Position numbers and translations under genes: made by a program. A stretch of 61,138 nt of DNA, filler included, from Candidatus Tectimicrobiota bacterium (lineage in GTDB: Bacteria; JACPSX01): NCBI GenBank assembly GCA_016193065.1. It is 5 parts of 5 records of this genome, joined end to end, with 100 filler letters (N's around TTAATTAATTAA, not from the genome) between each part and the next. Parts side by side here need not be neighbours in the genome. Positions count along the whole stretch, not along the records: positions 54,309 to 61,138 come from JACPSX010000227.1; 4 more parts are not named here. One strand, 5' to 3'. Shown piece after piece: positions 4,936 to 61,138 of this stretch. Below the pieces are notes generated by a model. It saw nothing but the letters and a program-made list of their open reading frames with translations. It ran no database searches and was not told where the DNA came from. How positions within the stretch are numbered: the stretch's first letter is position 1; every line of letters begins with the position of its first letter.

Positions 4936-4956
4936 GAAAGTCCCTCAAAAAACCCC

Positions 4957-4985: not shown

Positions 4986-5055
4986 ACCACTTTTGTGTGC
5001 CCGGGGTTCCGGCCCCGGGCTTTCCTGTGATTGTCTATGAGAGGAGGTGATTCCA

Positions 5056-5343
5056 ATGATTTGCGCTACCGTGCGGTCCGGCACCGAATGCGTCTTTATG
5101 AAGGAAAAGGGGTGCTCTTTCAACGGCGGGGAGTGCTATCCCATTGTGGAGGCTTGCCAGGGTTGCGCCCATGTCCTGGAGCTGCCCACGGGGAAATTCT
5201 GTGATGCCTACGGAAACCCCGCCGTCAAGTGGGTGCTGGGCCGCTGCAATTATGCCACCCACGTAAACAACGGCCACCAGAACAACGGGTCCACCAAGAA
5301 GCTGAATCCTCTCAAGGCTTCCAAGAGAAGCGCCCGCGGCTGA
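5056..5343 (+). CDS. PxxKW-family cysteine-rich small protein
   Basis: GAGGAGG RBS; CxF...GCSFNGGxC...CxGC...PAVKW...C and C-terminal KKLNPLKASKR. Confidence 0.8.
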   Translation: MICATVRSGTECVFMKEKGCSFNGGECYPIVEACQGCAHVLELPTGKFCDAYGNPAVKWVLGRCNYATHVNNGHQNNGSTKKLNPLKASKRSARG

Positions 5344-5398
5344 CATAAACGCGGAGGAGAGGCCCCGGATCACACCGCACCCGGAGCCTCGAGCGGCT

Positions 5399-5878
5399 CT
5401 ACGGCAAGAGGAGCTCCATCATCAGGGCATCCTCGCGCGTGTCCTCATAGTAGCCCCGGCGCACCCCGATCGGCGAAAACCCCAGGCCGCGGTAAAGGTT
5501 TTGGGCGGGAACATTCGAGCGCCGTACTTCCAGGAGCAGCCGCCTGGCCTCGTGGGCTGCGGCAAACCTCCGGACCTCACGGATCAAACTGCGGCCCAGC
5601 CCGTGCCGCCGCAGGTCGGGGTGAACGGCGAGGTTCGTAATATGGACTTCGTCAACGACGTGCCAGAAACAGACATATCCCGCCACACCTCTGGGGAAGC
5701 CGCTGTTGGGGTAGCGAATCACCAGATTGTACGAGAGGCCATCGAGCTTCAATTCGTGAACGAAGGACGATCGGGGCCAGGGGGAGGAGAAGGAAAGGTT
5801 CTCGATGGCCATGACCGAGTCCAGGTCCTCAGGCGTCATGGGCTCGATGGTTGTTTTCCTGTCCACTTCCTGCGACAT
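5399..5878 (-). CDS. rimI: Ribosomal protein S18-alanine N-acetyltransferase
   Basis: IENLSFSSPW, EVHITNLAVHP, RRHGLG, LEVRRSN, RRGYY...EDA motifs. Confidence 0.9.
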   Translation of the reverse strand: MSQEVDRKTTIEPMTPEDLDSVMAIENLSFSSPWPRSSFVHELKLDGLSYNLVIRYPNSGFPRGVAGYVCFWHVVDEVHITNLAVHPDLRRHGLGRSLIREVRRFAAAHEARRLLLEVRRSNVPAQNLYRGLGFSPIGVRRGYYEDTREDALMMELLLP

Positions 5879-5892
5879 TGCTATGGAAAGCC

Positions 5893-8184: not shown

Positions 8185-8508
8185 GCTCGATTCCTCCCTG
8201 AGTCCTCCCAATGATCAGCACCCCGGCTAAGCCGGGGAAAAACCCTGGGTTTCTAGCTCCCTTCTAAAGGATCTTCCCGGGCTTGTCAAGCGAACGGAAA
8301 GCCGGCCAAACCTTCTCTCTTTCTATCTATATCGTCCCGGCCGGGCGGTATCTCCAGCCAATCATTGCGCCAGGCGACTATACCTTCTGGCCATTTTTGT
8401 CGTTGACCGATGGGTTATCACCCGGCTAAGATAAGGCATTTCAAAGAATATGGCGAAAACAGCCCTCTGGGGCCGGCCCTTATTTCCAATCAAATGCGGC
8501 AGAGCGAG

Positions 8509-11031: not shown

Positions 11032-11265
11032 GGAAATCTCCTCATCACTCTTATGAATTGCAGATCAGGAACTTACGGAATGCTAACTATACCAGAGGCG
11101 GGCCCAATTGCCTAGCTTGCAGAATACCCCCGGTTCCTGCCGAGCCTCTCTAAGACAAGCAACTTGGCTTTCTTTTGACCAACCTTCACCACCCCCTCTC
11201 TTCGTGCCAAGAAGTACGACGAGGCGCGAGATATCTGGCAAGCCCGAGTGGATGGCGATTACTGC

Positions 11266-11913
11266 TTACAGGGCCTTGCCGATAACGTCCAGATCATCCA
11301 ATTTTGACTTGATGCTCAAGAAGTCGTCCTCAATCTGTTGTAACCCAGACTGTAGTTCTGCGATCGCTGTAGTCGTGCTCTTTTTCTGTCGTCGGTTGAT
11401 ATCATCCATGAACCGGTTTACCAAGCGAAGAAACTCTTTCATCTCCTCCACCAAGTCATTATCGTTAACTAGCCACTCCGCACAGAGACCCTTGAGACGG
11501 GCATATGATTTCCTGAGAAGGGGCAGATTGCCCATCCAGCCTTTACGCTTCTGCAAGAAGAGCATCTTGTCCCTCACGACATGGCAGTGCGTCCGAACCA
11601 AACCATCCGTTTTGAGAAACACTTTTTTATAGGCGGCGCGGGTTTCGGGAAAATGCTTGGTAAACTTTTGGGGCGTGTTCATCTGGTAGAGGGGGCCGAT
11701 CGTATCCACAACCGTGTCGTAGCTCTTCCGCACTTCGGCAATCATCTCCTTAAGAGCATGCCTCACGTCTTGATGTTGCACGGCCCCGGACAAGGTCTTC
11801 ACGATCGTCACGAACTCCCCCAGCTTGACCTTCAGTTTCGCGAGGCCTAGGCTGAGCTCGATTTCGGGACTCAGTCTTTCCCAACCGAGTTCGTCGGTAT
11901 TCGCAAGGGTCAT
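11266..11913 (-). CDS. Hypothetical alpha-helical protein
   Basis: 215-aa ORF with GGAGG RBS; amphipathic helical composition; last gene of the minus-strand unknown cluster. Confidence 0.7.
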   Translation of the reverse strand: MTLANTDELGWERLSPEIELSLGLAKLKVKLGEFVTIVKTLSGAVQHQDVRHALKEMIAEVRKSYDTVVDTIGPLYQMNTPQKFTKHFPETRAAYKKVFLKTDGLVRTHCHVVRDKMLFLQKRKGWMGNLPLLRKSYARLKGLCAEWLVNDNDLVEEMKEFLRLVNRFMDDINRRQKKSTTTAIAELQSGLQQIEDDFLSIKSKLDDLDVIGKAL

Positions 11914-12415
11914 TTTGACCTCCTAGAGCGAGCGCCTCCTGGGCGTCCTCTGCGCTCCCGCTGATGTTAATCTGCCCGTTGCCGAAGCTGTCCGCAATGG
12001 ACGTCAGCGTCACACCGCTCACGCTCACGCCGCCTGAACCGCCGCAACTCGGCGGCAGGCCGTTGGGGCTCACGCCGAGAGCCGCCGCAACAGCCGGACA
12101 GAAGGCAAGCGAATGGAACGTTCCCGGCGAGATCGAGATCGCCAGGTCGCGCCCGGAGGCGATCGCGGTCGAAGTCTTGTTGACGTGATTGCCGTTGTTC
12201 TGCGTCGACGCCAGAAGGTTGCCGAAGAGCCCCAGCGCCTGCTTGCTGCGGTCGCTGTTGCCGATGCAGTGCACTTGGAGGCTGCTGAACTGCAGCGGCG
12301 AGAACGATCCGTTCGTCCCCGGCACGCCGCCGATCTGCATGTTCTTCTTGATCAGCTTCAAAATAGTGGGATTGGAGATTTCGGTGACCAGATCGAATCC
12401 TGCTAGCAAGCTCAT
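11750..12415 (-). CDS. Hypothetical Ser/Gly/Asn-rich protein, probably truncated or frameshifted near 11940
   Basis: AAGGAGG RBS and ATGA overlap with upstream frame; the 3' part overlaps the next gene by 164 bp and loses protein-like character. Confidence 0.55.
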   Translation of the reverse strand: MSLLAGFDLVTEISNPTILKLIKKNMQIGGVPGTNGSFSPLQFSSLQVHCIGNSDRSKQALGLFGNLLASTQNNGNHVNKTSTAIASGRDLAISISPGTFHSLAFCPAVAAALGVSPNGLPPSCGGSGGVSVSGVTLTSIADSFGNGQINISGSAEDAQEALALGGQNDPCEYRRTRLGKTESRNRAQPRPRETEGQAGGVRDDREDLVRGRATSRREACS

Positions 12416-13017
12416 GCTGACCTCCTTGCAAACAGACCCTTCAGGTGGATCCGGTAGTTCTGAGGCGATTTGCTCGCTTTTAACGCCCTATAGGGCACGG
12501 CCGACAGGCCGGCCAACCGCGGCTCCGTAGCCAGGATCTCGGTCTTTGCCTTCTCCTACAGTTCCACACCGATGTCTTCAAACAGCAAGAACGGATGGAT
12601 CAGGAACAGGTTGCCTCCGTTCGGCACGGCCCGAATCCGCCGGAGAATCTCTTGCTCGTGCTTGAGCAGCTCGGCGTACGAGCCGATCGACAGACGGTTC
12701 ACGGTTGACTCCTCCCGGTCTGGCTGCAAGTCAAGAGCCAGACGCGCAGACAGCCGCCCGCGGCCGGACGACCGCCAACTCTGCTCGGCCACGTCCAGTG
12801 CCTCGTCACCCCGAAACACATGAAACGTCAGTTGCGACGTCGGCCGTCCGCTCGGTAGCCCCTGTGGAATCTCGATCTTCTGAACGAACTCGCCGCGAGC
12901 GCTGGTTATCGCGGTGGCGACATGAGATGAGCCGCAGTGGATGTCGACACGCAGAGCCTCGAGCTCTCGCTCGTTGGACGCGTCAACCACTACGCCTGTC
13001 AAGAGTAATGTGGACAT
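12412..13017 (-). pseudogene. Hypothetical protein interrupted by a single in-frame TAG at 12556-12558
   Basis: After ...EDIGVEL-TAG the frame stays open for 47 codons (EKAKTEILATEPRLAGLSAVPYRALK...LFARRSA) and ends in a TGA overlapping the next ATG. Confidence 0.7.
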
Positions 13018-13068
13018 GACGAACCTCCTCTAAGTCTTCAGTTGCAGGCGTCCCCGGTGACGCGTGGT

Positions 13069-13344
13069 TTAGAGACTGCTCACCTGTCTCAAGTGGGGCA
13101 CAGCAGCCAGTGAAGGCCTGTCTCTTAGGTCCACTGCGACTCTGGCGGCATGCCCGTCGAAGCGATACCGTTTGCCCGTGATCGGCCCCAGCACGGTTAA
13201 TCCCGTCTTGCCGAGGTACTCGAAATAAACGACGGCATAGCGCGTCGGCCGGGGTTGTGGAGAGGCACCTGGAGCGGGCTCAAAAGCCCGGCCCGTCTGA
13301 ACGATGCCGTGGAACTGTCCCCTTTGCTTGCCGCAACAGGACAT
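13069..13344 (-). CDS. Small hypothetical protein with N-terminal MSCCG
   Basis: AAGGAGG RBS before MSCCGKQR; protein-like core YFEYLGKTGLTVLGPITGKRYRF...VDLRD; abuts upstream gene. Confidence 0.75.
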   Translation of the reverse strand: MSCCGKQRGQFHGIVQTGRAFEPAPGASPQPRPTRYAVVYFEYLGKTGLTVLGPITGKRYRFDGHAARVAVDLRDRPSLAAVPHLRQVSSL

Positions 13345-13345
13345 C

Positions 13346-13666
13346 TCAGTCCTCCTTATCTTCAATGTATGCGGCCGGCGGTGCGCCGTGCTCGCGGTTC
13401 GTGACGCGCTCCAGCAAAATCGCTCCCGCCGACAACGCCGGCCACAACAGGAGCCGCTCCATCCACCCGTCTCCGAGGAGATAAGCGAAGGGAGCGGCGA
13501 TCCAAAGGCTCAAGCAATAAAAGCAATCGAGCAGGCTTCCCCAGAATCCCGCTCCTAGTCTCTGGCGCAAGCGGACCAGGAGATCCCACGGTCCGTCTTC
13601 CGCCTGGAGGAGATGGGTGATGCGCCAGACGCAGAGGATCCCGAGCCCAAGCCAATAAAAACGCAT
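13346..13666 (-). CDS. DUF1360-like small membrane protein
   Basis: WRITHLL..EDGP..L..LR...LLDCFYCLSLW pattern with hydrophobic helices. Confidence 0.75.
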   Translation of the reverse strand: MRFYWLGLGILCVWRITHLLQAEDGPWDLLVRLRQRLGAGFWGSLLDCFYCLSLWIAAPFAYLLGDGWMERLLLWPALSAGAILLERVTNREHGAPPAAYIEDKED

Positions 13667-13718
13667 CGCCGATCACCAGTGGGCGCGAAGCGCGGCTCCC
13701 GGCGGCGCGCCCTCCGCC

Positions 13719-13753
13719 GCTGGGTCTGCCGCCTCGTGGACGGCAGACCCAGC
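13719..13753. other. Perfect 13-bp intergenic stem-loop inside the operon
   Basis: GCTGGGTCTGCCG-CCTCGTGGA-CGGCAGACCCAGC; no U-tract on the minus strand. Confidence 0.7.
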
Positions 13754-13760
13754 AGAAAGC

Positions 13761-15932
13761 TCAGAAGGTCACCCCAAAGGTGAACTCGCTGAGATTGTTG
13801 TGGGAAAAGTCATAGTTGCAGCCGGCAATCGTGCGCTTATAGGCGCGCAGTTCCAACTGATAGCAGCAAGGTTCCGGGAACGCCGTGTTGACGGGAACGC
13901 TCAAGTGCAGCATGCCTCCGGCCCAGGTCGGAGCCGCAGCGCCCTGAGCTAATGCGGCGCCATACGTGGGGCCTTTCTGCAGCGCCGCCGGCGCGGGTCC
14001 CGCCGCTCCAACCGAGAGCGTCCCCACGGCCAAGAGGTTCACGAACAGGTTCTCGCCGTAGGTGGCAATCAGCGTGTAGTACGCCAGGTGTCCATCCGGG
14101 TCATAGGTCATGAAGTCGATTTCCAGGTTACCCCCTTTCTTGACATCCACATTGGTGCACGCCCCGACAGGGGTCACCGCGCCGTCTCCATCGATGACTT
14201 TGACGGCGGTGAAGTCGGTATCGGGCTCCAGGGTGCAGAGGTGGACAGTGCCCGGTCCGCACGGGTGGTCGGGGACGCTGGGCGGATGACCACTGGCCGG
14301 ACCAACCACACGATTGTCAATGGTCAGCACGAGGTAGTTGTCTTTGTCTGTATCGCACAAGGGGAGTATGCGCGAATTGACCAGGTTGCCCGCCGCGAGG
14401 TCCCAGCCCCGCAAGCGCAGGTAATACGTCCCATTCGCGAAGTTGTTCTCCGTGAGCCATACCATCAGGAGGTCCCTGTTGGAGATCCAGAAGCGGGTCA
14501 TTCCCCAGCTCCCGGGGTCGTTGTTCGCCTCGAAGTGCTCGCGGCTTTGGACGACGTTTCGTCCACTGATAAACGCAAAGGAGAAGGGGACAGAATGGAA
14601 ACCAACCGGACCTGCGGGCAATTGAGGCCCCCAGAAAGACCGCGCGAAGCCCCCGCTGGCCGGCGGCGGCATCGGGTTCCACGGCCCGGCGGCGGTCGGG
14701 GCCCACTCAAACTCGTAATAGTCCACCCCCGCTGTGTCCCCGAACACGCCGGAAATGGGTACCGCACCCGCGTACGGCCGGTCGCCGTGGCTCGCGGCAA
14801 CTCCGGGATTCGCGTAACCTGCCGGGGTCGCCGGTGCCCCGGGATTCCCACCGATATTGTTGACCTGATTGCTGCAGGCGTGGGAAATCACGATGCAGTT
14901 GCCTTCCGGGCAATCTTTGGGATCGTGGCAGATGGGGATGCAGCAGGCCCTCTCGTTGGCGATCAACGTCACGGTGAGGTCAGTCGGTATATCCCAGCGC
15001 ACGTCTGCAAAGCCCTCGTCCACGATCACAGTTCCTGGCTGAGGGCAGTCCTGCGTCACCCGGAAGACGATGTCCGGGGTGCAGTCCCACCACGGCGACC
15101 AGGGCCACCAGGGCCAGATGCGCAACTGCTCGAGTTCCGGCACGCGCGGTAACCGCTTTAACAGCCGGTCACGCAGGCTGGGCAGTACAGCCGGATCGAC
15201 GGTGGTCGATGCCGGCCGCGTGAGGACCCCTTCTTCGGCAAGCAACTGCTCGAAGATGGCGAGGGTGGGCGCGGGGCTTGGGGTTGGAAGCTTGGGGAGC
15301 TTCGGATCACGCTGCAGGACGGGTACGATCCGCTCGGCCAGGATCGGCTCGAGCCGCCAGACTCGATACTTCCACCACCACCAAGGCCACCAGCCGCAGC
15401 ACCAGCGGAACTTGATCTCAAAGGCGCCCGTCGCATCCGACGTGTCACAGCCCACTTGTTGGTTGCTGCTCCACCACCACCACCAGTCCACATCATAGGC
15501 GCAAACCTTGGCGCCGGGAACCGGGCTGCCGTCCGGACACAGGATGCGGCCGCGGATGGTAAAGGTTCGGCACCACCGCAACCACCAATACCAATAGTAT
15601 GGGTGGATCTGGATGGGCGGGAGCTTAAGTTCCCGCCGGTCCGCCCACTGCCGGGCCGACAGCTCGACGTTGATCGTCTGCATGCCCAGCAGCTCTTCAT
15701 CCGACGCATTTTCCGGGCCTACTAAAATACGCAATGCGCCAGGATTTGCGAAGAAGGTGAAGGTAGCGATACCCTGCCCCTTCGCGTCGAGCTTGACCGT
15801 CTGTGAAGAAACAGACCATTTGCGATTTTGGACGGCGACCTTAACTGACTGGTCAGGTTTGAAATCCCAGATACCGGATGCGTCTAAAGGTATCTCAAGC
15901 CTGTAGGTGTCGTGGTCTTCTCTTGCAGTCAT
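13761..15932 (-). CDS. Large Trp/Cys-rich hypothetical protein with a carboxypeptidase-regulatory-like beta-sandwich segment
   Basis: 723 aa; AGGAGG RBS; IRGRILCPDGSPVPGAKVCAYDVD...TSDATGAFEIKF; Trp runs such as DWWWWWSS and RWCCGWWPWWWWKY. Confidence 0.85.
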   Translation of the reverse strand: MTAREDHDTYRLEIPLDASGIWDFKPDQSVKVAVQNRKWSVSSQTVKLDAKGQGIATFTFFANPGALRILVGPENASDEELLGMQTINVELSARQWADRRELKLPPIQIHPYYWYWWLRWCRTFTIRGRILCPDGSPVPGAKVCAYDVDWWWWWSSNQQVGCDTSDATGAFEIKFRWCCGWWPWWWWKYRVWRLEPILAERIVPVLQRDPKLPKLPTPSPAPTLAIFEQLLAEEGVLTRPASTTVDPAVLPSLRDRLLKRLPRVPELEQLRIWPWWPWSPWWDCTPDIVFRVTQDCPQPGTVIVDEGFADVRWDIPTDLTVTLIANERACCIPICHDPKDCPEGNCIVISHACSNQVNNIGGNPGAPATPAGYANPGVAASHGDRPYAGAVPISGVFGDTAGVDYYEFEWAPTAAGPWNPMPPPASGGFARSFWGPQLPAGPVGFHSVPFSFAFISGRNVVQSREHFEANNDPGSWGMTRFWISNRDLLMVWLTENNFANGTYYLRLRGWDLAAGNLVNSRILPLCDTDKDNYLVLTIDNRVVGPASGHPPSVPDHPCGPGTVHLCTLEPDTDFTAVKVIDGDGAVTPVGACTNVDVKKGGNLEIDFMTYDPDGHLAYYTLIATYGENLFVNLLAVGTLSVGAAGPAPAALQKGPTYGAALAQGAAAPTWAGGMLHLSVPVNTAFPEPCCYQLELRAYKRTIAGCNYDFSHNNLSEFTFGVTF

Positions 15933-22428: not shown

Positions 22429-22528
22429 NNNNNNNNNNNNNNNNNNNNNNNNNNNNNNNNNNNNNNNNNNNNTTAATTAATTAANNNNNNNNNNNNNNNN
22501 NNNNNNNNNNNNNNNNNNNNNNNNNNNN
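22429..22528. other. Artificial contig spacer
   Basis: N-run / TTAATTAATTAA (stops in all frames) / N-run. Confidence 0.98.
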
Positions 22529-36556: not shown

Positions 36557-36656
36557 NNNNNNNNNNNNNNNNNNNNNNNNNNNNNNNNNNNNNNNNNNNN
36601 TTAATTAATTAANNNNNNNNNNNNNNNNNNNNNNNNNNNNNNNNNNNNNNNNNNNN
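36557..36656. other. Artificial contig spacer
   Basis: N-run / TTAATTAATTAA / N-run. Confidence 0.98.
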
Positions 36657-45921: not shown

Positions 45922-46021
45922 NNNNNNNNNNNNNNNNNNNNNNNNNNNNNNNNNNNNNNNNNNNNTTAATTAATTAANNNNNNNNNNNNNNNNNNNNNNN
46001 NNNNNNNNNNNNNNNNNNNNN
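45922..46021. other. Artificial contig spacer
   Basis: N-run / TTAATTAATTAA / N-run. Confidence 0.98.
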
Positions 46022-50048: not shown

Positions 50049-52031
50049 TCAGCCCTCCAGGCTCCGAAAGTAGCCCATGATTCCCGCGATCTTATCGGGC
50101 GGCCCGAGGACAAAGAGCACGTCATTCGCCCGGAGCTTCACGTCTCCCTGAAGACTCGACAAAATCTCCGAGTCCCGGCGTATGGCCAACACCGTGACTC
50201 CCAATTTCTTCCTGAACTCAACCTCACCCAGAGACTTGCCCACCAGGGGGAAACCCTCTCCCACCCGAAGCGTGCCGATCTCCACATCGGGGAAGTGAAA
50301 CTTGAAGTCGGACAAGGAATAGAAAGGACGAGAAAGGCTGCGAAACATCTCGTAACCGTCCGCCCGCACCTCGGCGACAAGCTTTTCCACATCGTCTCTG
50401 GGGATAAGATACTTGGCCAGGAGGCGGGCAAAAATCTCCACCGAGGTTTCAAACTCCTCGGGGACGACCTCGTTCGCCCCCAATTCATACAACGGTTTCA
50501 TTTCCTGGATATAGCGCGTCCTCACGATGACATGAACCCTGGGGTTGAGGCTGCGGGCGATGGCGGTGATGTGCCGGGTCGCCGCCGGATCCGAGATGGC
50601 CACCACCAGGACCCGCGCTTCCTTGATGCCCGCGTGCTGCAACACCGCCTCGTGGACCGCGTCTCCATAATAAATCGGCTCGCCTCTGGTCTGCTCGTTC
50701 TTCACCGTATCCGCATTGATCTCAATGATCAGATAGGAGATGCCGGCCACCTTGGCGGCCCGGGCCACGTTCTTTCCGACCAGGCCAAAACCGACGATGA
50801 TCAGATGATCCTTGATTCCTGCGGCGCGCGCCGCCCCCGCCGGGGAAAAACCGGATCGCGCCGGCAGCGGCAACCTGAGGACGGACTCCGCGACGGCGGG
50901 CGCCAGGGCGATGACGAAGGGCGTAGCGGCCATGGTCACTACGGAGACGGCCAGAAAGAGCTGGTTGACGTCTCCGGAAAGCAACCCGTGCCGGACGCCC
51001 GTCTCGGACAGGATGAAGGAAAACTCCCCGACCTGACTCAGCGTCAGCCCCACCAGGATCGCCGTCCGTAAGGGGAAACCCAGGAGCGCCGTCGCCAGCC
51101 CGGCGATGACGGCCTTCAAGGCCATCACGCCCAGAGCCACCAGCCCGATGACCTGCGGTCGGGCCAGGAGGAAACCGACGTCCAGCAGCATGCCGATGGA
51201 CACGAAAAAAAAGCTCGCAAAGACATCCCGGAACGGCAGAACATTGCCGAAGGCCTGGTGACTGTATTCCGACTCGGAGATGATCAAGCCCGCCAGGAAC
51301 GCGCCCAGGGCGAGGGAGAGCCCCAGGCTGGAGGTCACCCAGGCCACGGCCAGGCAGAGGACGACCACGCTCAACAGGAACAATTCCCGGACCCGCGTCC
51401 TCGCCACTTGATGCAGGATATAGGGGACGACCCATTTCGCGGCCAGGGCCACCAGCAGGATGATCGCCACCCCTTTGGCCAGCAGGACGAGGAGGGCAAG
51501 GCCGAAGTTCCCACTCTTTCCGGCCAGCAGGGGCGTGAACAGGATCATCGGCACGATGATCACATCCTGGAAAATCAGCATGGCAACGGACGTGCGGCCG
51601 TGGGGACTGTCCACCTCGGCCCTTTCCTGGAGGATTTTGAGCACAATGGCCGTGCTGCTCAGGGAGATCAGAAAACCGATGAAGATGGATTCACCCCAGG
51701 GGTGGCCGAACCGGCCGGCAATGAGAGCCGCGGCCAGGAAGGTGAGCACCACCTGAAGAGATCCCCCCGCCAGGACCGATTTCTTGACTTGCAGCAGGTT
51801 TTTCAGCGAGAACTCGATGCCGATCGTGAACAGCAGCAGCACGACGCCGACTTCCGCCAGCGTCTCCACTTCCCGCACCTCCCCGATCAGGCCCAGCCCG
51901 TGAGGGCCCGCCAGCACGCCCGTCAGCAGAAACCCCACAACGGCCGGCACCCGGAAGCGCTGGCAGATGAAGATCACGACCAGGGATAACCCGAAGATGA
52001 TCACGATGGCCTTGAGCAACGGCATTTCCAT
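50049..52031 (-). CDS. CPA2/Kef-type cation:proton antiporter with TrkA-N and TrkA-C domains
   Basis: LLFTIGIEF, SLSSTAIV, FQD, QVGEFSF, IIVGFGLVG, YGDA. Confidence 0.93.
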   Translation of the reverse strand: MEMPLLKAIVIIFGLSLVVIFICQRFRVPAVVGFLLTGVLAGPHGLGLIGEVREVETLAEVGVVLLLFTIGIEFSLKNLLQVKKSVLAGGSLQVVLTFLAAALIAGRFGHPWGESIFIGFLISLSSTAIVLKILQERAEVDSPHGRTSVAMLIFQDVIIVPMILFTPLLAGKSGNFGLALLVLLAKGVAIILLVALAAKWVVPYILHQVARTRVRELFLLSVVVLCLAVAWVTSSLGLSLALGAFLAGLIISESEYSHQAFGNVLPFRDVFASFFFVSIGMLLDVGFLLARPQVIGLVALGVMALKAVIAGLATALLGFPLRTAILVGLTLSQVGEFSFILSETGVRHGLLSGDVNQLFLAVSVVTMAATPFVIALAPAVAESVLRLPLPARSGFSPAGAARAAGIKDHLIIVGFGLVGKNVARAAKVAGISYLIIEINADTVKNEQTRGEPIYYGDAVHEAVLQHAGIKEARVLVVAISDPAATRHITAIARSLNPRVHVIVRTRYIQEMKPLYELGANEVVPEEFETSVEIFARLLAKYLIPRDDVEKLVAEVRADGYEMFRSLSRPFYSLSDFKFHFPDVEIGTLRVGEGFPLVGKSLGEVEFRKKLGVTVLAIRRDSEILSSLQGDVKLRANDVLFVLGPPDKIAGIMGYFRSLEG

Positions 52032-54208: not shown

Positions 54209-54308
54209 NNNNNNNNNNNNNNNNNNNNNNNNNNNNNNNNNNNNNNNNNNNNTTAATTAATTAANNNNNNNNNNNNNNNNNNNNNNNNNNNNNNNNNNNN
54301 NNNNNNNN
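54209..54308. other. Artificial contig spacer
   Basis: N-run / TTAATTAATTAA / N-run. Confidence 0.98.
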
Positions 54309-54599
54309 CGGAGCACGAAGAAGAGGCTCGAAATGCCCTCGAAAAGGTGATCCACACTGTGACCGGAAAAAACGAGTCCTTGCAACTCCCCGAAATTGCA
54401 AGCGCAAAGGTCTAAGCGGATGCGACTCCCACGCTCCTCCGCCAGCAATCTGGTAGCCCCTTGTCGAATGCGTCAACCGCGTGCTGGCAAGGGGTTTTCT
54501 GTTTGCCACGAGCTCACCACGGCTGGCCCTTTCCGGTGCGGAGGCTCCCCTCTTCCGCAGGCTCTCGGAGAACTTCGAGTTGTGCGTCTACGGTCTGGG

Positions 54600-55058
54600 C
54601 TATGTTCGGGCGGAGCTGGAGCGCTTGAGGGACCCGACCCCGTGCAGCACCCAGGTTCGATAGTGCTCGAAGTGATTCTGCAGCGCCCGCGACGTGACCG
54701 CGCCGTCGATGAACAGATGGACTGCCTCGCTCAGAATCAGCAGCGTCTCCGCGTTCCCTTTAATGGTGACGGTCCCACCGGCGAGCAGGCGCAGCAGAGT
54801 GGCTGTTCCGTCCACCAGATCCAGGATGTCGCGGGGGGTGATCGCGGCCTCTACCTTCGTGGTCTTTGCCCGCCAGCCGGGGGCCACGGAGATGCGACTC
54901 CGTGCCGCCGTCAGCGTGAACCGTTCCGTCCCGACCTGATACCGTCCCGGCGCCGCTTCGAGAGAGACGCACAGCGCGGCGTAGCGGTCCGGCGATTCTG
55001 CCTTGAGAATCTCAAACGCACGCCGGAAAAACTGAAGCGTGGAGTCTGCACGTGCCAC
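54600..55058 (-). CDS. SCP2-like lipid-binding domain protein
   Basis: GTG start at 55058; ITPRDILDLVDGTATLLRLLAGGTVTIKGNAETL matches the SCP2 C-terminal pattern. Confidence 0.65.
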   Translation of the reverse strand: MARADSTLQFFRRAFEILKAESPDRYAALCVSLEAAPGRYQVGTERFTLTAARSRISVAPGWRAKTTKVEAAITPRDILDLVDGTATLLRLLAGGTVTIKGNAETLLILSEAVHLFIDGAVTSRALQNHFEHYRTWVLHGVGSLKRSSSART

Positions 55059-55078
55059 AGTGCCGCAAGATCCCTTGC

Positions 55079-56122
55079 TCAACCGGCCAGCTCGGCAAAC
55101 CCGGCATAGGTAAAGGCGAAGGCGCGCCCGCCCAGCACCCCCTGGGCCTGGTACGGCCCCACGAGCTCGGCGATGGTCGTGGTCCCGCCTCCCACCGGAT
55201 GGGGAACGAGGAACTGGAGAGCATTTTCCACATCCATCCGAATCTCGACCCGGTCCTCCCCGTCCTCGGCACGGATGCGGAGTTGGCGCGGAATGCCGGA
55301 GACCCGGGGCGGAGCGAGCAGCGCCATCACGCCGGGAACACGCGGGATCGCCACTCCGGTCAGTTCCCCCGCCGTCGCAATGTCCACGGCCTCGTCGAGG
55401 AAGACCTGCGCGCACCTCTCGCCGACCCAGACCAGCAGCACGAGATCGGACTTGGCGGCGGCGCGCGTGGCATCCGTGACTTGCCCGAACACGATGGACA
55501 CCGGAGGGGACCCGTTCCTGGTTCGTGGCGGCGATTGGATGAGGTAGCCCCAGTCCCACCCGAGGTCCGTGCCCCAGTTCCAGTACCCCCAGTTGTGGTC
55601 GTGATAGCCGGTGGCGCCCTCGATCCGGTACTCGCAGCCAGCGATGCGCACGGAGCCTTCAACGGCCAGGCGCGGCAGGATGAACGTGTTGATCATCCCC
55701 CCGATGTTGTCGACGCGGATGGCCGATGCTTCGGGCGTCCACGAAGCCTTCAGGACGACTGAGCCGTCCTTGAGCGCTGCCGAGACGAGGTAGCGGTCCT
55801 TTCGGAACCGCACGGAGTTAGCGCCGATTTGCAAATCGACCGATCCCGGCGAGAAACGCGCTTCCTCGATCGAGTACAGGTTCATCGTTCCGCGCCACCC
55901 CTTTTTCCGGTCGCACACGACGAGGGAAACCCCGGCCCGTCCCTGCGCGGGATCCTGGATGTTGCCCGACAGCGCCAGGTTGAGGACGCCGTACAGCCCG
56001 TTGGCGTCATCGTTAAAGTTGAAGTGATGCCACTCGCTGTACTTCTGCAGTTCGCCCGGATCGGTCCGTGGACGACTCAGCGCATCATCCTGTTGGATGC
56101 GGGTGACGAACCTCAGCTTCAC
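55079..56122 (-). CDS. CrtC/AttH/tocopherol-cyclase-like protein
   Basis: YSEWHHFN near the N-terminus and GATGYHDHNWGYWNW...WDWG; beta-strand-rich. Confidence 0.65.
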   Translation of the reverse strand: MKLRFVTRIQQDDALSRPRTDPGELQKYSEWHHFNFNDDANGLYGVLNLALSGNIQDPAQGRAGVSLVVCDRKKGWRGTMNLYSIEEARFSPGSVDLQIGANSVRFRKDRYLVSAALKDGSVVLKASWTPEASAIRVDNIGGMINTFILPRLAVEGSVRIAGCEYRIEGATGYHDHNWGYWNWGTDLGWDWGYLIQSPPRTRNGSPPVSIVFGQVTDATRAAAKSDLVLLVWVGERCAQVFLDEAVDIATAGELTGVAIPRVPGVMALLAPPRVSGIPRQLRIRAEDGEDRVEIRMDVENALQFLVPHPVGGGTTTIAELVGPYQAQGVLGGRAFAFTYAGFAELAG

Positions 56123-56134
56123 GTCAGCATCGCC

Positions 56135-56437
56135 TCATCGGAGCAGAGATGAATGGAGATCGGGCTTGTCGCTCCCGGCATGTGCCTCTGGCGCATGGGC
56201 CGGGTCGTCCAGGAAGAAAGAAGAGACTTGCCTGAGCTGATTCTCCACGAGCTGTGTGGCCAGCCGCAATTCGGCCCGATGGTTTTGGAAAAACGCCCCC
56301 GGCCGCCATAGCAAATCAGTGACTTCCGGCGTCGGGAGCAGCAGGCGCAGGATCAGATACAGGTCGTTGGCGGGAGTCTCTTCGATCCTGATCCGAGGGA
56401 GCGTCGCTCGCGGTGGAGCTTTCACAGAGCGCCTCAC
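56135..56437 (-). CDS. Small hypothetical protein
   Basis: GTGA overlap with upstream gene; fills the operon gap exactly. Confidence 0.5.
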   Translation of the reverse strand: MRRSVKAPPRATLPRIRIEETPANDLYLILRLLLPTPEVTDLLWRPGAFFQNHRAELRLATQLVENQLRQVSSFFLDDPAHAPEAHAGSDKPDLHSSLLR

Positions 56438-57141
56438 GACGCGCGCCGCTTTTTCGCCGGCTTGGCACGCTTGACTGTCTGGCCCGCCGGTTTGGCCTCC
56501 TTCCCGGGCGGCCGGACCGTGATCGCAAGTGCCACTTCCTTGGCCTGGAATCCCAGCACGCGGATCGTCGTGCTGTAGGTCTGCCCCACCACGAAGTCTT
56601 TTGTCAGAGTGACTGCGGCGTTCACCACCGCCTGGCCCTTCGGGGCCACCATCAAGGTGGCGGGCTCAAAGGAGATATGCGAAGCCGGAAGGGCGCGCCC
56701 GCTCCCGGGGACCAGGTCACTGGCCTGGAAGGCCACATCAAGGGCACGGTCGTAGCGGTTCTCCACAAGAAATGGCGCAGTCACTCGTTCCCCCTGCCGC
56801 CCCTCGAGTCGCATTTCGACCTTCTGTTCGGCTGACGGGCCGGGTTCCGGAGCAGGGCGCGCCTTGGTACCCAGGGCTTGTTCTGCCGCCGAGACGATGC
56901 CGTTGAGGAGCGCCATCCCTTGCGTGCTGATCACCGAGTAGGACGCGAGGTTGAACTCCATCCAGCGCGCGAACAATGTGGACGCGTCGATCGGCTCCTT
57001 CTGGCGGGCGGTGGCGGCTTTCACCAGTTCGTTGATACGGGCCATCAGTTGGACGTTCCCGGCAAGGTTAGCCGATATCAGCGCTTTCAACTCCTCGACG
57101 AAGGTCTCCGGCGACATGCGTTCGGTCGAACCCTTCGACAT
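56434..57141 (-). CDS. Hypothetical protein: helical N-domain, predicted Ig-like C-domain, Lys-rich tail
   Basis: AAGGAGG RBS; FLVEN...ISFEPATLMVAP...GQTYSTTIRV; ends KRAKPAKKRRAS. Confidence 0.8.
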   Translation of the reverse strand: MSKGSTERMSPETFVEELKALISANLAGNVQLMARINELVKAATARQKEPIDASTLFARWMEFNLASYSVISTQGMALLNGIVSAAEQALGTKARPAPEPGPSAEQKVEMRLEGRQGERVTAPFLVENRYDRALDVAFQASDLVPGSGRALPASHISFEPATLMVAPKGQAVVNAAVTLTKDFVVGQTYSTTIRVLGFQAKEVALAITVRPPGKEAKPAGQTVKRAKPAKKRRAS

Positions 57142-57217
57142 CGTCACTGCCCTCCTTGTCGTCACCCGGTTTGTATTCGAGCGAACCCTCTCCCCAACAG
57201 CGCGGCGTGGTCGGCGG

Positions 57218-57910
57218 TCACCGTGGATTGGTGTCGGTGGCGAACTCCGTCACCACCTTGCCCATTCCTGGCTTCCCCACGGGTTGTGGCGCACAGGGTT
57301 CGGCGCACTGGAAGTGATCATGCCAACGATGCGCACGAATCCGGACCGGGGGATCCCCCTGCGCCACCTCGCAAGCACAATGCTGCTCGCCCTGGACCTC
57401 CAGGGTGACGCAGACGCACTGCTCATAGGCTCCCTGGACAAGGATCTCCGCCTCGTATCGTCCCGGCGTGAAACCGGCCGGGACCGTAAAGGTCGCAGTC
57501 ACGACACCGGATTGGCCGGCGGGAAGCGTGAGATTGGTGGGCGACAGCGCGATGGTTGCCGACGATCCTCCGGCCCCGACGAAAGGGGTCGCCTGAAAGG
57601 TGAAGGTTCGCCCGGTCTGCGAGGCGTTGGTGACGCGGATCGTGCAGCGCAGCGTTTCTCCCCGACCGGCTTCCCAGGCGATCTCACACGCGCACCGCGG
57701 AGGACATTCGGTCTCGGGGATCTCGCACATGCCCTTCGGCTTGAGCGCGCTCCAGGCAGGCATTGCAGGGGACAAAATGCCGGCAGCCTGCTGCATGAAG
57801 ACGCGGGCGCTGTCCACAGACATGGCCAGCAGCCTGGGGGCAAGCGTAGCCAGGTTTACCATCGTCGGCTGTTTGGGAGCTGTGGATTTCACGAATACTC
57901 GACTCATCAT
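57218..57910 (-). CDS. Cys-rich hypothetical protein with a predicted Ig-like segment
   Basis: GGAGG RBS and ATGA overlap with upstream stop; 11 Cys (CEIPETECPPRCAC, CVC, CAC, HRWHDHFQCAEPC). Confidence 0.8.
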   Translation of the reverse strand: MMSRVFVKSTAPKQPTMVNLATLAPRLLAMSVDSARVFMQQAAGILSPAMPAWSALKPKGMCEIPETECPPRCACEIAWEAGRGETLRCTIRVTNASQTGRTFTFQATPFVGAGGSSATIALSPTNLTLPAGQSGVVTATFTVPAGFTPGRYEAEILVQGAYEQCVCVTLEVQGEQHCACEVAQGDPPVRIRAHRWHDHFQCAEPCAPQPVGKPGMGKVVTEFATDTNPR

Positions 57911-58698
57911 GGCCTCCGTTTGTTGGAACCGGGTGTGCCGTTGCATTCCACTTCAAAGTACAAGTCGGTGCTCATAAAGGGGATGGCCCGGACGTATGTC
58001 CGGCCCTTGATCAATTTCTCCGGTAAGGTGATCTCCGCGTGGACCTCCCGGGTCTCCCCGGGTCGAATCTCCCGCGGGTTCGCATGGAAGGTCACCCGGG
58101 CAGGACGGATGTCGGTGGCGCGGATCTCGCGCAGGAGCCGGTCGAGATACGCCTGATGGCTTTCGCCTTCTTCCGTCTGGCGCAAGGCATATACGAGCGA
58201 GCGGCCGAACCAATCGCGCTCCTCGAGGTGGACCAGCGCCAGCTCGGGTACCGTGTGCGTCACGTTGCCCCGATTCGTGATGACGAGGGGCTGGGAGAAC
58301 ACCTGCCCGGCAACGCCGCGGAATTGGAGGCGCTCAGGCGCGACGCGCACGTCCAACTTTTCCAGGACGTGGACCACAACCTGCTCCCGTTGCTCCCCGC
58401 AGGCGAGTTCAGCGGTGTACTTGCCGGGCGGCGTGTAGGGGTCCACGAAAAAGTGGGCCCGCACGCGGGCGCGGTCCCGTGGCGCGAGGCGAGCGGCCAG
58501 CCGCACCTCTTGGAGTCCCCGGACGGCGAGCGCCTCCCCCTTGTGACCGGTGGCGCCAATCGCCCGCACTTTCACTTTTTCATCCGACGCATTGATGAGC
58601 TCCAGATCGCCCGAACACATCGGCGGCACGCCGCTGAGTATGAACGGCCCGGCACCGAGCCGCCACGCCTGTCCAGGCGGAGCTGTATGCTTTTGCAT
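57907..58698 (-). CDS. Hypothetical protein with predicted tandem beta-sandwich domains
   Basis: AAGGAGG RBS; TPPGKYTAEL and LVITNRGNV...IRPGETREV patterns. Confidence 0.8.
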   Translation of the reverse strand: MQKHTAPPGQAWRLGAGPFILSGVPPMCSGDLELINASDEKVKVRAIGATGHKGEALAVRGLQEVRLAARLAPRDRARVRAHFFVDPYTPPGKYTAELACGEQREQVVVHVLEKLDVRVAPERLQFRGVAGQVFSQPLVITNRGNVTHTVPELALVHLEERDWFGRSLVYALRQTEEGESHQAYLDRLLREIRATDIRPARVTFHANPREIRPGETREVHAEITLPEKLIKGRTYVRAIPFMSTDLYFEVECNGTPGSNKRRP

Positions 58699-58754
58699 GA
58701 TGGCGTCCCTCCTTTGCCACAGCCGGTGGCGCGCAAGGCTTCACCCGCAGGGGC

Positions 58755-59141
58755 TCACGCGCACGTTTCGGTCTTGTGCGGCACATAGTCCTCGATCACA
58801 ACCATGCTTTCCCCGCACACGCAGAAGGACAGCAGCTCCATTCCCAATGTGCACAGGCCGAACTTGAGGTTGACCGGGAAGTGCACGCGGGTCGGTTTCA
58901 TGGCCATCTCGACATGCAGGTCGATCCGCGGAAGCTCCTTGATACGGATGTTGTCGAGACCCATGTCCACTTTGCTGTCGCTCGTGAGCTTGCTATCGCT
59001 CGTGAGCTTACTGTCGCTGTTGAGCGAGATGGTCGGGAGTTCCTTGACGTGGATATTGTCCAGATCCATGTCCAGACTGCCGCTCAAGGCCATATTCGAG
59101 TCAATGGTGTAATGGGTGGGAACGCTGATACCCTTGCTCAT
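58755..59141 (-). CDS. Small repeat-containing hypothetical protein with Cys-containing C-terminus
   Basis: AAGGAG RBS; duplicated M.LDNI..KELP.I flanking (SDSKLT)x2-SDSK; C-terminal FGLC...FCVCGES...TCA. Confidence 0.8.
   Translation of the reverse strand: MSKGISVPTHYTIDSNMALSGSLDMDLDNIHVKELPTISLNSDSKLTSDSKLTSDSKVDMGLDNIRIKELPRIDLHVEMAMKPTRVHFPVNLKFGLCTLGMELLSFCVCGESMVVIEDYVPHKTETCA
58971..59018 (-). repeat. In-frame 18-bp tandem repeat
   Basis: AGCGACAGTAAGCTCACG AGCGATAGCAAGCTCACG AGCGACAGCAAA. Confidence 0.85.
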
Positions 59142-59179
59142 CTACAATCTCCTTCTTTGTGCCGCGGGCCGTGCAACCT

Positions 59180-60265
59180 TCATAAGTCCCTGTAGATCAC
59201 GTAATCGATCATTTCTTCGAGAAACCGTCTGTGCGGCGTTTCCGCCAAGTCGCCCATCTCGCCAAGGAAAATGGTCCTGGCCGATTCTGCAAACCTCCGG
59301 GACACGTCGCGCCCATAGTCCAGACACCCGTACTTATACATCAACCCCAGCACCTCCTCGACTTCCGGTGCCGTCTTTCCTTCCCGCGGCTTGGACATGA
59401 CGCGCACCATGCGCTGATGCTCGCGCGCGCTGCACCGTTGCAGCAGTTTGATGAGCATCAGCGTCCGCTTCCCTTCCCAGATGTCTCCTGCCGTTTCCTT
59501 GCCGTAGCGCCCCTCTTCGCCGACCAAGTTCAAGAGGTCGTCCTGGATCTGGAAGGCGACACCCATGTAATACCCGAACCGGATGAACGCGTCCAGGTTG
59601 GCGTTGTTGCTGCCGCCGATGATCGCCCCGATCCGGCAGGGCGTGATGCACGTGTACCAGCATGTCTTCTTGCAGGTCATCACGTGATAGTGGCGGTCGG
59701 TGAGGTTCCAGTGCCGATTCTTCACCCACTCCAGCTCCATCGCCTGCCCCTCCACGGATTCCCGCGCCATTCGTTCGATCTCCTTGAAGATTCTCAGCGT
59801 CTTCTCCAGCCCGAGGACCTCGAGGTTGTTCAGGAGCGGGGTCATGGAAAGCACGTTCAGCGCGTCGCCCACGTTGATCGCGATGGCGACTCCGTACTTC
59901 CGGTGAATGGTCGGCTCGCCGCGCCGGTGGATGGATTCATCCTCTACGTCGTCGTGCACCAGAAAGGCATTGTGAAACAGCTCCAGGGCCACCGCCGATT
60001 GCAGCGCGTGCTCCAGCCGTCCCCCGAACGCCTGGCAGGTGGCGAGGCACAGCGCGGGCCGAAGCCCTTTGCCGGCGCGGAGCGGGTATTCGGCCAAGCG
60101 CCCCGCGAGCGCCTTTTGGAATCGCTTCGCCGCGATGATCCGGCGCATCTCGCTGATCACGGCGTCGCGATACGTGAGCAGCATCTCGGAAAAGACGCGG
60201 TCCGCATGCGGCGGCGTACTCCCATGGGGTTGACGTGCCGCACTCCCATTCCCTTGTCTTTCCAT
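59180..60265 (-). CDS. Polyprenyl diphosphate synthase (GGPPS-like)
   Basis: GKGLRP, FARM AFLVHDDVED..RRG, GQAME, KKT, SARM FQIQDDLLN, DIWEGKRT. Confidence 0.93.
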   Translation of the reverse strand: MERQGNGSAARQPHGSTPPHADRVFSEMLLTYRDAVISEMRRIIAAKRFQKALAGRLAEYPLRAGKGLRPALCLATCQAFGGRLEHALQSAVALELFHNAFLVHDDVEDESIHRRGEPTIHRKYGVAIAINVGDALNVLSMTPLLNNLEVLGLEKTLRIFKEIERMARESVEGQAMELEWVKNRHWNLTDRHYHVMTCKKTCWYTCITPCRIGAIIGGSNNANLDAFIRFGYYMGVAFQIQDDLLNLVGEEGRYGKETAGDIWEGKRTLMLIKLLQRCSAREHQRMVRVMSKPREGKTAPEVEEVLGLMYKYGCLDYGRDVSRRFAESARTIFLGEMGDLAETPHRRFLEEMIDYVIYRDL

Positions 60266-60357
60266 AGTTTTCCCAGGGATCCCCTGAAGGACTCTCAGCG
60301 CGTACGGGTCCCGAGAGAACTCCTCCACCCACCCGCCTTTTTTGCCGAGCGCCGCTC

Positions 60358-60912
60358 TCACCGCCAGCCCCCATTGTTCTTCACCTGCTCGGGCATACCG
60401 CGAGCCCGCAGCTCCGCCCAGGCGATCCGAAACCATACCGAATAGCGCCCCGGGCTCGCCGCCACGTCGTCGCTCACCTCGTCGACGCCGGCCCAGCGCC
60501 AGTCATCCACCTCGTCGGGATTGGGCCGGGGATCTCCCTCGAACTCCCCTACGAAGACGTGATCGTACTCATGCTCGGTCAGGCCATGGTCCAACTCGGC
60601 CTTGTAGATGAAGCTGAAGGCCGGGGACAATGCGCAATCGAACCCCATCTCCTCATGCAATCGCCGGCGGGCCGCCTCTCCGATGGGCTCTCCCGGCCGC
60701 GGATGGCCGCAGCAAGTATTCGTCCACAACCCACCGGAATGGTACTTGGTGACCAACCGCCGCTGTAGGAGCAACCGGCCGGCTCCGTTGAACACGAAGA
60801 CGGAAAAGGCGCGGTGCAGCGTGCCTTGTTCGTGCACGGGGATCTTCTCGCCCGTGCCCACTTCCACGTCGTTTTGGTCCACAAGGACGAGCTTTTCTTC
60901 CACTTCACTCAC
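60358..60912 (-). CDS. idi: Isopentenyl-diphosphate delta-isomerase, type 1
   Basis: LHRAFSVFVF, LLLQRR, WTNTCCGHP, RRLHEEMG, EHEYDHVF, NPDEV, WF. Confidence 0.96.
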   Translation of the reverse strand: MSEVEEKLVLVDQNDVEVGTGEKIPVHEQGTLHRAFSVFVFNGAGRLLLQRRLVTKYHSGGLWTNTCCGHPRPGEPIGEAARRRLHEEMGFDCALSPAFSFIYKAELDHGLTEHEYDHVFVGEFEGDPRPNPDEVDDWRWAGVDEVSDDVAASPGRYSVWFRIAWAELRARGMPEQVKNNGGWR

Positions 60913-61138
60913 CCTGCGCGGGAGGACCCGGCAAGCTGGAATGTGTCGGCCGACGGTGTATTATTGATCTGTTCCGGGGGTTTTGCCACATCAGAGCCGC
61001 GGCAACGATTCCACATGGGTCACTACCCCCAACATCGGGTCAATGAGGACACCTTTCCTGTTGTGATGCAGGGGCGCCCCAAACTCTTCTGGATATTTTG
61101 ACGCTACACTTCTTAGAGGGCATGGTCAAGTGGAAAAC

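Follow-up and report, generated by a model that had tools for sequence, protein, structure and literature searches.

A predicted operon couples isoprenoid genes to four conserved protein families of no known kind in a Candidatus Tectimicrobiota bacterium

Introduction

The stretch of DNA analysed here (the window; 61,138 nucleotides, from the Candidatus Tectimicrobiota bacterium assembly GCA_016193065.1) contains a predicted operon of nine genes, referred to as g1–g9 in the following. In this operon, an isopentenyl-diphosphate isomerase (Idi, g1) and a prenyl diphosphate synthase (g2) are combined with a group of small proteins (g3–g6), a protein with the fold of AttH and the carotenoid 1,2-hydratase CrtC (g8) and an SCP2-like protein (g9). 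By the sequence tests run, the coupling of the isoprenoid genes to the module g3–g6 is real and undescribed, and the module itself matches no known kind. Building on the observed gene order, the family and fold assignments, the conservation of the proteins and their synteny across phyla, we propose that g3–g6 may form a proteinaceous structure in the cytoplasm, by which a hydrophobic isoprenoid derived from geranylgeranyl diphosphate (GGPP) is held or templated. This interpretation includes an inferred assembly and an inferred contact with lipid, and we assign it a probability of roughly 0.38.

Layout of the operon

All nine open reading frames (ORFs) lie on the minus strand and span positions 60912 to 54600. 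With the preferred starts, they are separated by 92, 38, 56, −4, 52, −4, 12 and 20 nt in the order g1 to g9, which agrees with the nine co-oriented genes and short gaps that a preliminary description of this DNA, made from the sequence alone, had reported. The two 4-bp overlaps it named are likewise present: an ATGA at 57910/57907 links g4 and g5, and a GTGA at 56437/56434 links g6 and g7. Its statement that most genes have strong ribosome-binding sites holds for g3, g4 and g5, which are preceded by the Shine-Dalgarno-like sequences GAAGGAG, AGGAGG and GGAGG, respectively; those of g8 and g9 are weaker, and none is visible for g7. The GC content at third codon positions (GC3) is 0.74–0.82 in g1–g6, g8 and g9, and 0.68 in g7. 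No paralog of any of the nine proteins is found elsewhere in the window.

Related loci in other phyla

Related loci were sought in 185,579 species genomes with two peptide patterns taken from a 13-sequence alignment of g4, a scan that sees only pattern matches. Four of its 49 candidate stretches were confirmed, one each from NC10 (L001), Desulfobacteraceae (Desulfobacterota; L002), Binatia (L003) and Vicinamibacterales (Acidobacteriota; L004). According to tblastn comparisons with the nine window proteins, the order g3, g4, g5, g6, AttH-like gene, prenyl synthase is found in the NC10, Binatia and Vicinamibacterales loci, the first of which also carries idi just upstream. In all three, the AttH-like gene starts before g6 has ended, with 4 bp in common. 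The 4-bp overlap of g4 and g5 in the window recurs in the NC10, Desulfobacteraceae and Binatia loci. This recurrence, the order g3–g6 at three of the four loci and the GC3 of 0.74–0.82 in eight genes all speak against an accidental layout of the operon.

The synthase ORFs of the NC10 and Vicinamibacterales loci have an N-terminal extension of about 200–250 aa, such that the PF00348 domain begins at residue 250 or 271. In the Binatia locus, the frame for an SCP2-like domain and the synthase (4542–6265) is split into ORFs of 87 and 491 aa that overlap by 16 nt, which is a frameshift or an assembly error. Since g9 aligns with part of the extension (with the N-terminal domain of the NC10 synthase, at 27% identity over 67 aa and E 3e-4 in a single comparison), the separate SCP2-like gene of the window corresponds to the fused domain elsewhere. 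On the basis of these alignments, the same seven components appear to be kept in two arrangements across four phyla.

The preliminary description had declared itself open to refutation if homologs of the middle genes did not co-occur with the prenyl synthase, SCP2 and CrtC-like genes elsewhere. They do co-occur at three of the four loci, in other phyla, where the genes are ordered differently and the SCP2-like domain is joined to the synthase; the Desulfobacteraceae locus departs from this pattern. For a wider count, contigs of equal size were matched by eye between the lists of g3, g4 and g8 matches, and 16 contig sizes proved to be common to the g3 and g4 lists. Together with the four loci, this indicates that g3 and g4 travel together and that the module is usually accompanied by an AttH-like gene and a synthase. 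Gemmatimonadota and Gaiellales are further sources named for g3 and g4 matches. In tblastn searches against 72,556 plasmids, both proteins were without a match.

Isoprenoid enzymes, the AttH-fold protein and the SCP2-like protein

The identities proposed earlier for the first two genes, Idi and a trans-prenyltransferase, are borne out. g1 (60358–60912, minus strand, 184 aa) is firmly predicted to be a type-1 isopentenyl-diphosphate delta-isomerase, as it exceeds the cut-offs of the NCBIfam equivalogs NF002995 (186.7 bits; cut-off 127) and TIGR02150 (121.5 bits; cut-off 105.8) and scores 90.2 bits with the NUDIX model PF00293 of Pfam. g2 (59180–60265, minus strand, 361 aa) is, with similar firmness, a predicted trans-prenyl diphosphate synthase that resembles GGPP synthases: it scores 203.1 bits with PF00348, where the Pfam cut-off is 27, and both Asp-rich motifs are present (DDVED and DDLLN). 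Its frame is open to 60436, but a start there would overlap idi by 79 nt, and the ATG at 60265 is therefore the more likely, though not settled, start. The best NCBIfam scores of g2 are to short-chain IdsA, encapsulin-cargo polyprenyl transferase and GGPP synthase models, and the three solved structures closest to it each belong to a GGPP synthase (1wmw with 173.7 bits, 1wy0 and 5jfq), so that its product is likely a C15–C20 prenyl diphosphate. At the same time, it stays below every NCBIfam equivalog cut-off (IdsA 202.8 vs 468, GGPP_syn 178.5 vs 500, CrtE 110 vs 460), and these scores do not place it in a named GGPP synthase equivalog.

g8 (55079–56122, minus strand, 347 aa) is predicted to have the double-lipocalin fold shared by AttH, CrtC, Svf1 and tocopherol cyclase. 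Its model in the ESM Atlas (predicted template modeling score, pTM, 0.90) matches clusters in which 53–71% of the members carry PF07143, the CrtC family, with template modeling (TM) scores of 0.73–0.78, and a cluster in which 45% carry PF14249 (Tocopherol_cycl) with a TM score of 0.74. The annotations of the matched clusters comprise PF07143, PF14249 and PF17187. g8 itself has no match in Pfam; PF07143 is matched neither by g8 at E-values up to 0.1 nor by any of 33 aligned relatives at E-values up to 1. Some of these relatives are weakly similar to DUF2804 (11/33) and DUF7065 (7/33), with best E-values of 0.006–0.009, and a g8 profile found nothing credible among the PDB sequences. The motif G-Y-H-D-H-N-W-G-x-W is formed by invariant columns of the alignment. 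The earlier label of a CrtC/cyclase-like enzyme thus fits the predicted fold, the level at which our assignment is made, and does not extend to membership in the CrtC family.

The last gene, g9 (54600–55058, minus strand, 152 aa, GTG start), had been described as an SCP2-like carrier. This domain assignment stands by a slim margin, with 22.1 bits against a PF02036 cut-off of 21.3 (E 1.9e-4); the over-long 319-aa ORF scored 20.0. A profile of four sequences gave weak matches to the SCP2-like structures 3bkr and 2nbm (E 0.8–1).

Carotenoid (crt) clusters are usually flanked by genes for Idi, a GGPP-synthase-like enzyme and a CrtC-fold protein. As all three are present here, and as the Atlas cluster nearest but one to g8 is automatically named 'carotenoid 1,2-hydratase family protein', the operon could be taken for part of a carotenoid or quinone pathway of the ordinary kind (Idi, CrtE, CrtC), interrupted by hypothetical ORFs that are unrelated to it. 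We find this scarcely credible. Pfam and NCBIfam scans detected no crtB, crtI, squalene synthase or terpene cyclase family on the operon contig or among 19 ORFs from the four related loci, in line with what had been noted for the cluster before, and phytoene synthase and desaturase are hence missing from both. Moreover, PF07143 is unmatched, and the ORFs in between, hypothetical by this account, show conservation and synteny as well as translational coupling to the AttH-like gene.

The small acidic protein g3

g3 (58755–59141, minus strand, 128 aa) is the first gene of the g3–g6 module and has its best Shine-Dalgarno sequence. It encodes an acidic repeat protein (isoelectric point, pI, 5.2; no Trp) with a conserved β-hairpin near the C-terminus and a Cys as the penultimate residue, and according to sequence searches it founds a family that Pfam does not contain. 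Its homologs form 157 clusters at 90% identity and 211 at 50% identity, and it is 52–89% identical to 35 aligned homologs. For a remote set, we took 147 new sequences from the best 150 of the 211 clusters; in this set, 144 have no Pfam match at E-values up to 0.01, and the matches of the other three are under the cut-off or outside the g3-like part. A g3 profile had no match among PDB sequences.

The repeats of g3 comprise two I-x-I-K-E-L-P units and three DSKLTS units. They are also visible in the DNA (58929–59074), as a pair of 41-nt repeats that are 80% identical and lie 105 nt from each other, and as three 18-nt units in tandem. This suggests a recent duplication of units, in line with their variable number in the family (0–9, mode 2, over 267 members among the matches listed). 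Among the same 267 listed members, 234 keep the motif C-G-[EKQ]. In the AlphaFold2 model of the monomer (mean predicted local distance difference test score, pLDDT, 60.2; pTM 0.22), only a long hairpin of residues 84–116 is confident, as would be expected if the remainder were ordered upon assembly. In each of the 36 aligned sequences, the first hairpin strand (residues 85–96) has a strict alternation of polar with hydrophobic residues, and the β moment of g3 is reached by 7 of 200 shuffled sequences. A D-x-D-x-D-N stretch might be read as EF-hand-like, but its spacing is one residue off, and this reading was dropped by eye. Being first in its module, with the best Shine-Dalgarno sequence, strong conservation, variable repeats, an amphipathic hairpin and a monomer that, as modeled, does not fold by itself, g3 is a candidate for the major structural subunit.

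The C-terminus of g3 allows for a different view, in which g3 is a ribosomally produced protein that is S-prenylated at its penultimate Cys with GGPP from the operon, the synthase or g8 acting as the transferase and g4–g6 as handling or assembly factors. The Cys is located exactly one residue from the end in 117 of 120 close homologs and in 50 of the 147 remote ones among the matches listed, and a fixed spacing from the C-terminus is a hallmark of C-terminal lipidation signals. Furthermore, the operon makes a prenyl diphosphate and encodes no recognizable enzyme that uses it, and there is a precedent in ComQ, a member of the same family as g2, which prenylates a peptide. However, scans of the contig and of the ORFs from the related loci turned up no protein prenyltransferase, ABBA or UbiA family, and g2 retains the two Asp-rich motifs that a chain-elongating synthase normally has. 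The end of g3 is -C-X rather than CaaX, CC or CXC, which sets it apart from CaaX- and Rab-type substrates, and since it has no Trp, it is not ComX-like either. The g3 of the Desulfobacteraceae locus retains a -C-A end without isoprenoid genes nearby. Finally, the Cys could equally form a metal site with C109 and H122, and 27 of the 147 remote members among the matches listed have CxxC in place of the -C-X end. Full-text literature on bacterial prenylation yielded nothing usable. Overall, we regard this view of g3 as a prenylation substrate as quite improbable.

The β-sandwich proteins g4, g5 and g6

g4 (57907–58698, minus strand, 263 aa) has 63 homologs of nearly constant length, with a conserved basic tail, STKRRPR. 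Its AlphaFold2 model (pLDDT 90.5) shows two Ig-like β-sandwiches with a helical insert. Compared with the PDB, the model gave 202 matches at E-values up to 0.001, with TM scores normalized by the query of at most 0.35 among the matches listed. These are generic tandem Ig/ASH/PapD-like domains; the matches in BFVD are tail, BACON and DUF11-like domains. Neither fold search points to a function, and a g4 profile found nothing credible among PDB sequences. g5 (57218–57910, minus strand, 230 aa), whose start overlaps the g4 stop, and g6 (56434–57165, minus strand, 243 aa, or 235 aa if it starts at ATG 57141) both combine a helical N-terminal region with a β-sandwich, to which g6 adds a Lys/Arg-rich tail. 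Eight Cys and the motif H-x-W-x-D-H-F-Q-C of g5 are conserved in all four aligned sequences, and g5-like clusters of 93, 51 and 205 members in the ESM Atlas, mostly from Pseudomonadota and Bacteroidota, bear no family name. Pairwise hhalign comparisons of the three sandwiches point to a weak relation (probabilities of 79, 76 and 52%), which suggests, weakly, that g4, g5 and g6 are distantly related variants of one sandwich type.

For g3–g6, we found no match in Pfam, NCBIfam, the PDB, PHROGs or PADLOC, and no enzyme family. Judging from their homologs, they represent four real, conserved and new protein families of no known kind. The preliminary description had counted five such middle proteins; this holds for g3–g6 and not for g7, which is conserved nowhere. 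None of seven operon proteins tested has a match in PADLOC or PHROGs, and membership in an anti-phage defence or phage module is accordingly not indicated.

The sandwich folds also bring to mind surface or envelope components that leave the cell by non-classical export, in which case the isoprenoid genes might supply a lipid carrier or anchor. g5 and g6 have weak matches, under the cut-offs, to fn3_5, NPCBM_assoc and a putative S-layer model, one Atlas row for g5 reads 'COG1470 family protein', and Ig-like folds and many cysteines are common in extracellular proteins. On the other hand, no 19-residue window of any of the nine proteins reaches a Kyte-Doolittle value of 1.6, a crude sign that they have neither signal peptides nor membrane helices, which agrees with the earlier remark that the middle proteins lack signal peptides. 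The operon and the three syntenic loci contain no secretion or transporter gene, and the synthase is a short-chain trans enzyme and not an undecaprenyl (cis) synthase. A surface location is therefore very unlikely in our view.

A proposed protein structure for an isoprenoid product

The tight and repeated coupling of g3–g6 to a GGPP-type supply, a lipid-transfer domain and the AttH fold, known members of which protonate double bonds in prenyl chains, suggests a function in isoprenoid handling. In the proposed pathway, Idi would interconvert isopentenyl and dimethylallyl diphosphate, and g2 would extend them to a C15–C20 prenyl diphosphate. From its likeness to carotenoid 1,2-hydratase and tocopherol cyclase, g8 would be expected to protonate a double bond of the prenyl chain and hydrate or cyclize it, and the SCP2 domain would hand the lipid between enzyme and protein structure. 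The latter would be built from g3 as an abundant, multivalent subunit with g4–g6 as its partners, and its role would be to hold the hydrophobic product derived from GGPP, to template it or to sequester it. The assembly of g3–g6, the C20 product, the chemistry of g8 and the contact between lipid and protein are what we infer here. We count the charge complementarity of the acidic g3 (pI 5.2) with the basic g4 (pI 9.4) and g6 (pI 10.1) in favor of this proposal. A complex prediction for g4 with g3, both given as alignments, scored 0.00 against a mark of 0.32 and is neutral on binding.

More specifically, g3–g6 could constitute a new type of protein-bounded cytoplasmic body, with g3 forming a wall or lattice via its amphipathic hairpin and repeats, in or on which a GGPP-derived neutral isoprenoid is both made and stored. 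We consider this rather unlikely; if true, it would be a bacterial counterpart of plastoglobules or of encapsulin terpene compartments made of unrelated proteins. A bolder variant would have g3 anchored to the lipid through S-geranylgeranylation of its invariant penultimate Cys, to our knowledge the first case of endogenous Cys-prenylation of a bacterial protein.

Several observations speak against a structure dedicated to isoprenoids. The Desulfobacteraceae locus contains g3–g4–g5 only, without g6, g8 or a synthase in its 16 kb, and the module can thus exist apart from isoprenoid genes. In the Vicinamibacterales locus (10001–11461), g4 has two in-frame stops (one of them a TAA at 10223) and g5 is frameshifted or split over two frames; these lesions reflect either a decaying copy of the module or long-read assembly errors. 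The AttH-like genes of the three syntenic loci have 22–23% identity to g8 and read Y-H-E-R-V-H-G-R-W, whereas the window has Y-H-D-H-N-W-G-Y-W, and none of the three fused domains reaches Pfam SCP2 at E-values up to 5. By eye, 4 of 73 non-self g8 homologs are on contigs equal in size to that of a g3 or g4 match, and seven g8 matches on contigs of 34–342 kb have no g3 or g4 counterpart, so that the g8 family extends beyond this association. Lastly, the maximum helical moments of g5 and g6 are reached by 114 and 29 of 200 shuffled sequences, respectively, and are hence not above chance. The idea of a lipid-body coat, one of the variants raised in the preliminary description, was dropped for this reason in the form of a phasin-like granule coat, for which there was no phasin match either.

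Some of these points would also fit g3–g6, or g3–g5, as a self-standing structural or stress module, with which the isoprenoid genes are merely co-regulated, for instance under membrane or oxidative stress. The locus with g3–g5 alone, the g5-like Atlas clusters without a family name and the finding that the majority of g8 relatives lie on contigs other than those of g3 or g4 all favor such independence. Yet the 4-bp overlap between g6 and the AttH-like gene at all three loci argues against it, and seven components in two orders and four phyla are hard to explain from co-regulation alone. We consider a self-standing module unlikely, although by no means far-fetched.

Surroundings of the operon

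The 311-nt spacer between g6 and g8 contains g7 (56135–56437, minus strand, 100 aa), a doubtful ORF: it has no tblastn match in the four related loci, no family in Pfam, NCBIfam, PADLOC or PHROGs, no Shine-Dalgarno sequence and a GC3 of 0.68 where the other genes have 0.74–0.82. From these features, it looks like a chance ORF that probably falls outside the system.

The window is a chain of at least five contigs of one metagenome bin, joined by artificial linkers at 22429–22528, 36557–36656, 45922–46021 and 54209–54308, each of which consists of two runs of 44 Ns around the twelve bases TTAATTAATTAA. The contig with the operon covers 54309–61138 (6,830 bp), in agreement with the contig size recorded in the protein database for g4 and g8 of the window. 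As it starts at 54309, after a linker, genes to the left of 54209 are no true neighbors. The 226 bases 5′ of idi (60913–61138) have stops in each of the six frames, which makes idi the first gene of the operon. They include a weak sigma-70-like promoter match (60960–60989, minus strand; GTGGCA-18-AATAAT, 9 of 12 positions), which, with one site found and 0.8 expected in shuffled sequences, is no evidence taken alone. About 200 nt past g9, a terminator-like hairpin (54379–54402, minus strand) has a 10-pair stem followed by GACTCGTTTT; with five such sites in the region and 5.5 expected, it is a consistent detail only. From the contig start, a plus-strand frame (54309–54412) is open for 34 residues and ends with TAA; it is probably the C-terminus of a gene that converges on the operon and is cut by the contig end. 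An Rfam scan of the contig gave a single match at chance level (E 0.85).

Elsewhere in the window, 37 ORFs were compared with Pfam; they proved to be ordinary housekeeping and redox genes, with no isoprenoid gene among them. Two long minus-strand ORFs have no real family: one of 772 aa (5893–8211; GC3 0.82), with coiled-coil-type chance matches only, and one of 723 aa (13761–15932; GC3 0.76). A Kef-type exchanger with TrkA domains (50049–52031) is located at the end of the adjoining contig, and a gene of a Na+/H+ exchanger family (2–748) is found immediately 5′ of g3 in the Binatia locus; this may be a coincidence. In the Vicinamibacterales locus, a UbiD-family decarboxylase (5334–7133, minus strand) is encoded about 2.5 kb upstream of the module, on the opposite strand, and was seen at none of the other loci; UbiD-family enzymes use prenylated flavin. 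In the Desulfobacteraceae locus, g3–g5 are followed (11778–15702) by an opposite-strand ORF of 454 aa that belongs to no family, and then by a pyruvate-formate-lyase-like glycyl-radical enzyme.

Comparison with known systems

Should the coupling prove functional, a protein structure dedicated to an isoprenoid lipid would exist in at least four bacterial phyla, made of families that are in no database. This would bear on how bacteria sequester hydrophobic terpenoids, on the role of AttH-fold proteins outside carotenoid pathways and on whether bacteria lipidate their own proteins with prenyl groups. At minimum, there are four new protein families, including g3 with its 211 clusters at 50% identity and its -Cys-X end. 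Owing to its small size (about 6 kb, seven or eight genes) and its occurrence in soil bacteria, the system is directly accessible to heterologous expression.

The earlier statement that no named pathway has this layout is upheld by Pfam, NCBIfam, PADLOC, PHROGs and the PDB, and by full-text literature, in a coverage without subscription journals and supplements, where we found no description of the layout or its parts. With crt clusters, the operon shares Idi, a GGPP-synthase-like enzyme and a CrtC/AttH-fold protein, but it has neither crtB nor crtI, PF07143 is not matched, and four conserved, non-enzymatic genes are in its middle; we rejected its membership in a carotenoid cluster in view of the phytoene synthase and desaturase missing from the contig and the 19 ORFs of the related loci.

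In the plastoglobules of plastids, the tocopherol cyclase VTE1 occurs together with a fibrillin coat. They resemble the proposed system in that a prenyl-lipid enzyme of the AttH fold, to which g8 compares with a TM score of 0.74 in the PF14249 row, acts on a protein-coated neutral-lipid body. By contrast, the window has no fibrillin/PAP family, and the helices of g5 and g6 are not amphipathic beyond chance.

As a very small, very conserved protein that is first in its module, probably highly expressed, and equipped with an amphipathic β-hairpin and variable short repeats, g3 is reminiscent of the gas-vesicle protein GvpA and of other small, highly conserved wall or scaffold proteins, such as CsoS2-type repeat scaffolds. 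Unlike these, it has no Pfam or PDB sequence match, and there are no GvpN, GvpF or bacterial microcompartment genes; as no family is above its cut-off in g3–g6, membership in a gas vesicle, microcompartment or R-body shell was rejected. ComQXPA likewise has a PF00348 enzyme beside a small conserved protein, but g3 has no Trp, g2 has normal elongation motifs and Idi as a partner, and there is no kinase/regulator pair.

In the operons of family 2B encapsulins, which compartmentalize terpenoid synthesis, polyprenyl transferases and terpene enzymes are genetically coupled to a protein structure that assembles by itself (PMC8346489; PMC11550324; a 2026 geosmin preprint), and the cargo enzymes carry additional terminal regions (PMC8346489). 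The window differs from them in several respects: it has no gene for an HK97-fold shell, g3–g6 have 128–263 aa, with an Ig-like pair in g4 and nothing in PHROGs, and the operon encodes neither a cNMP-binding (cyclic nucleotide-binding) domain nor a class I terpene cyclase. Membership in the family 2 encapsulins was rejected on account of the shell gene and the cargo cut-off, as the 184.6 bits that g2 scores on the encapsulin-cargo model NF041169 are far under its cut-off of 450. This score is nonetheless a point of likeness, and terpenoid synthesis inside family 2B encapsulins is the nearest published concept to the coupling described here.

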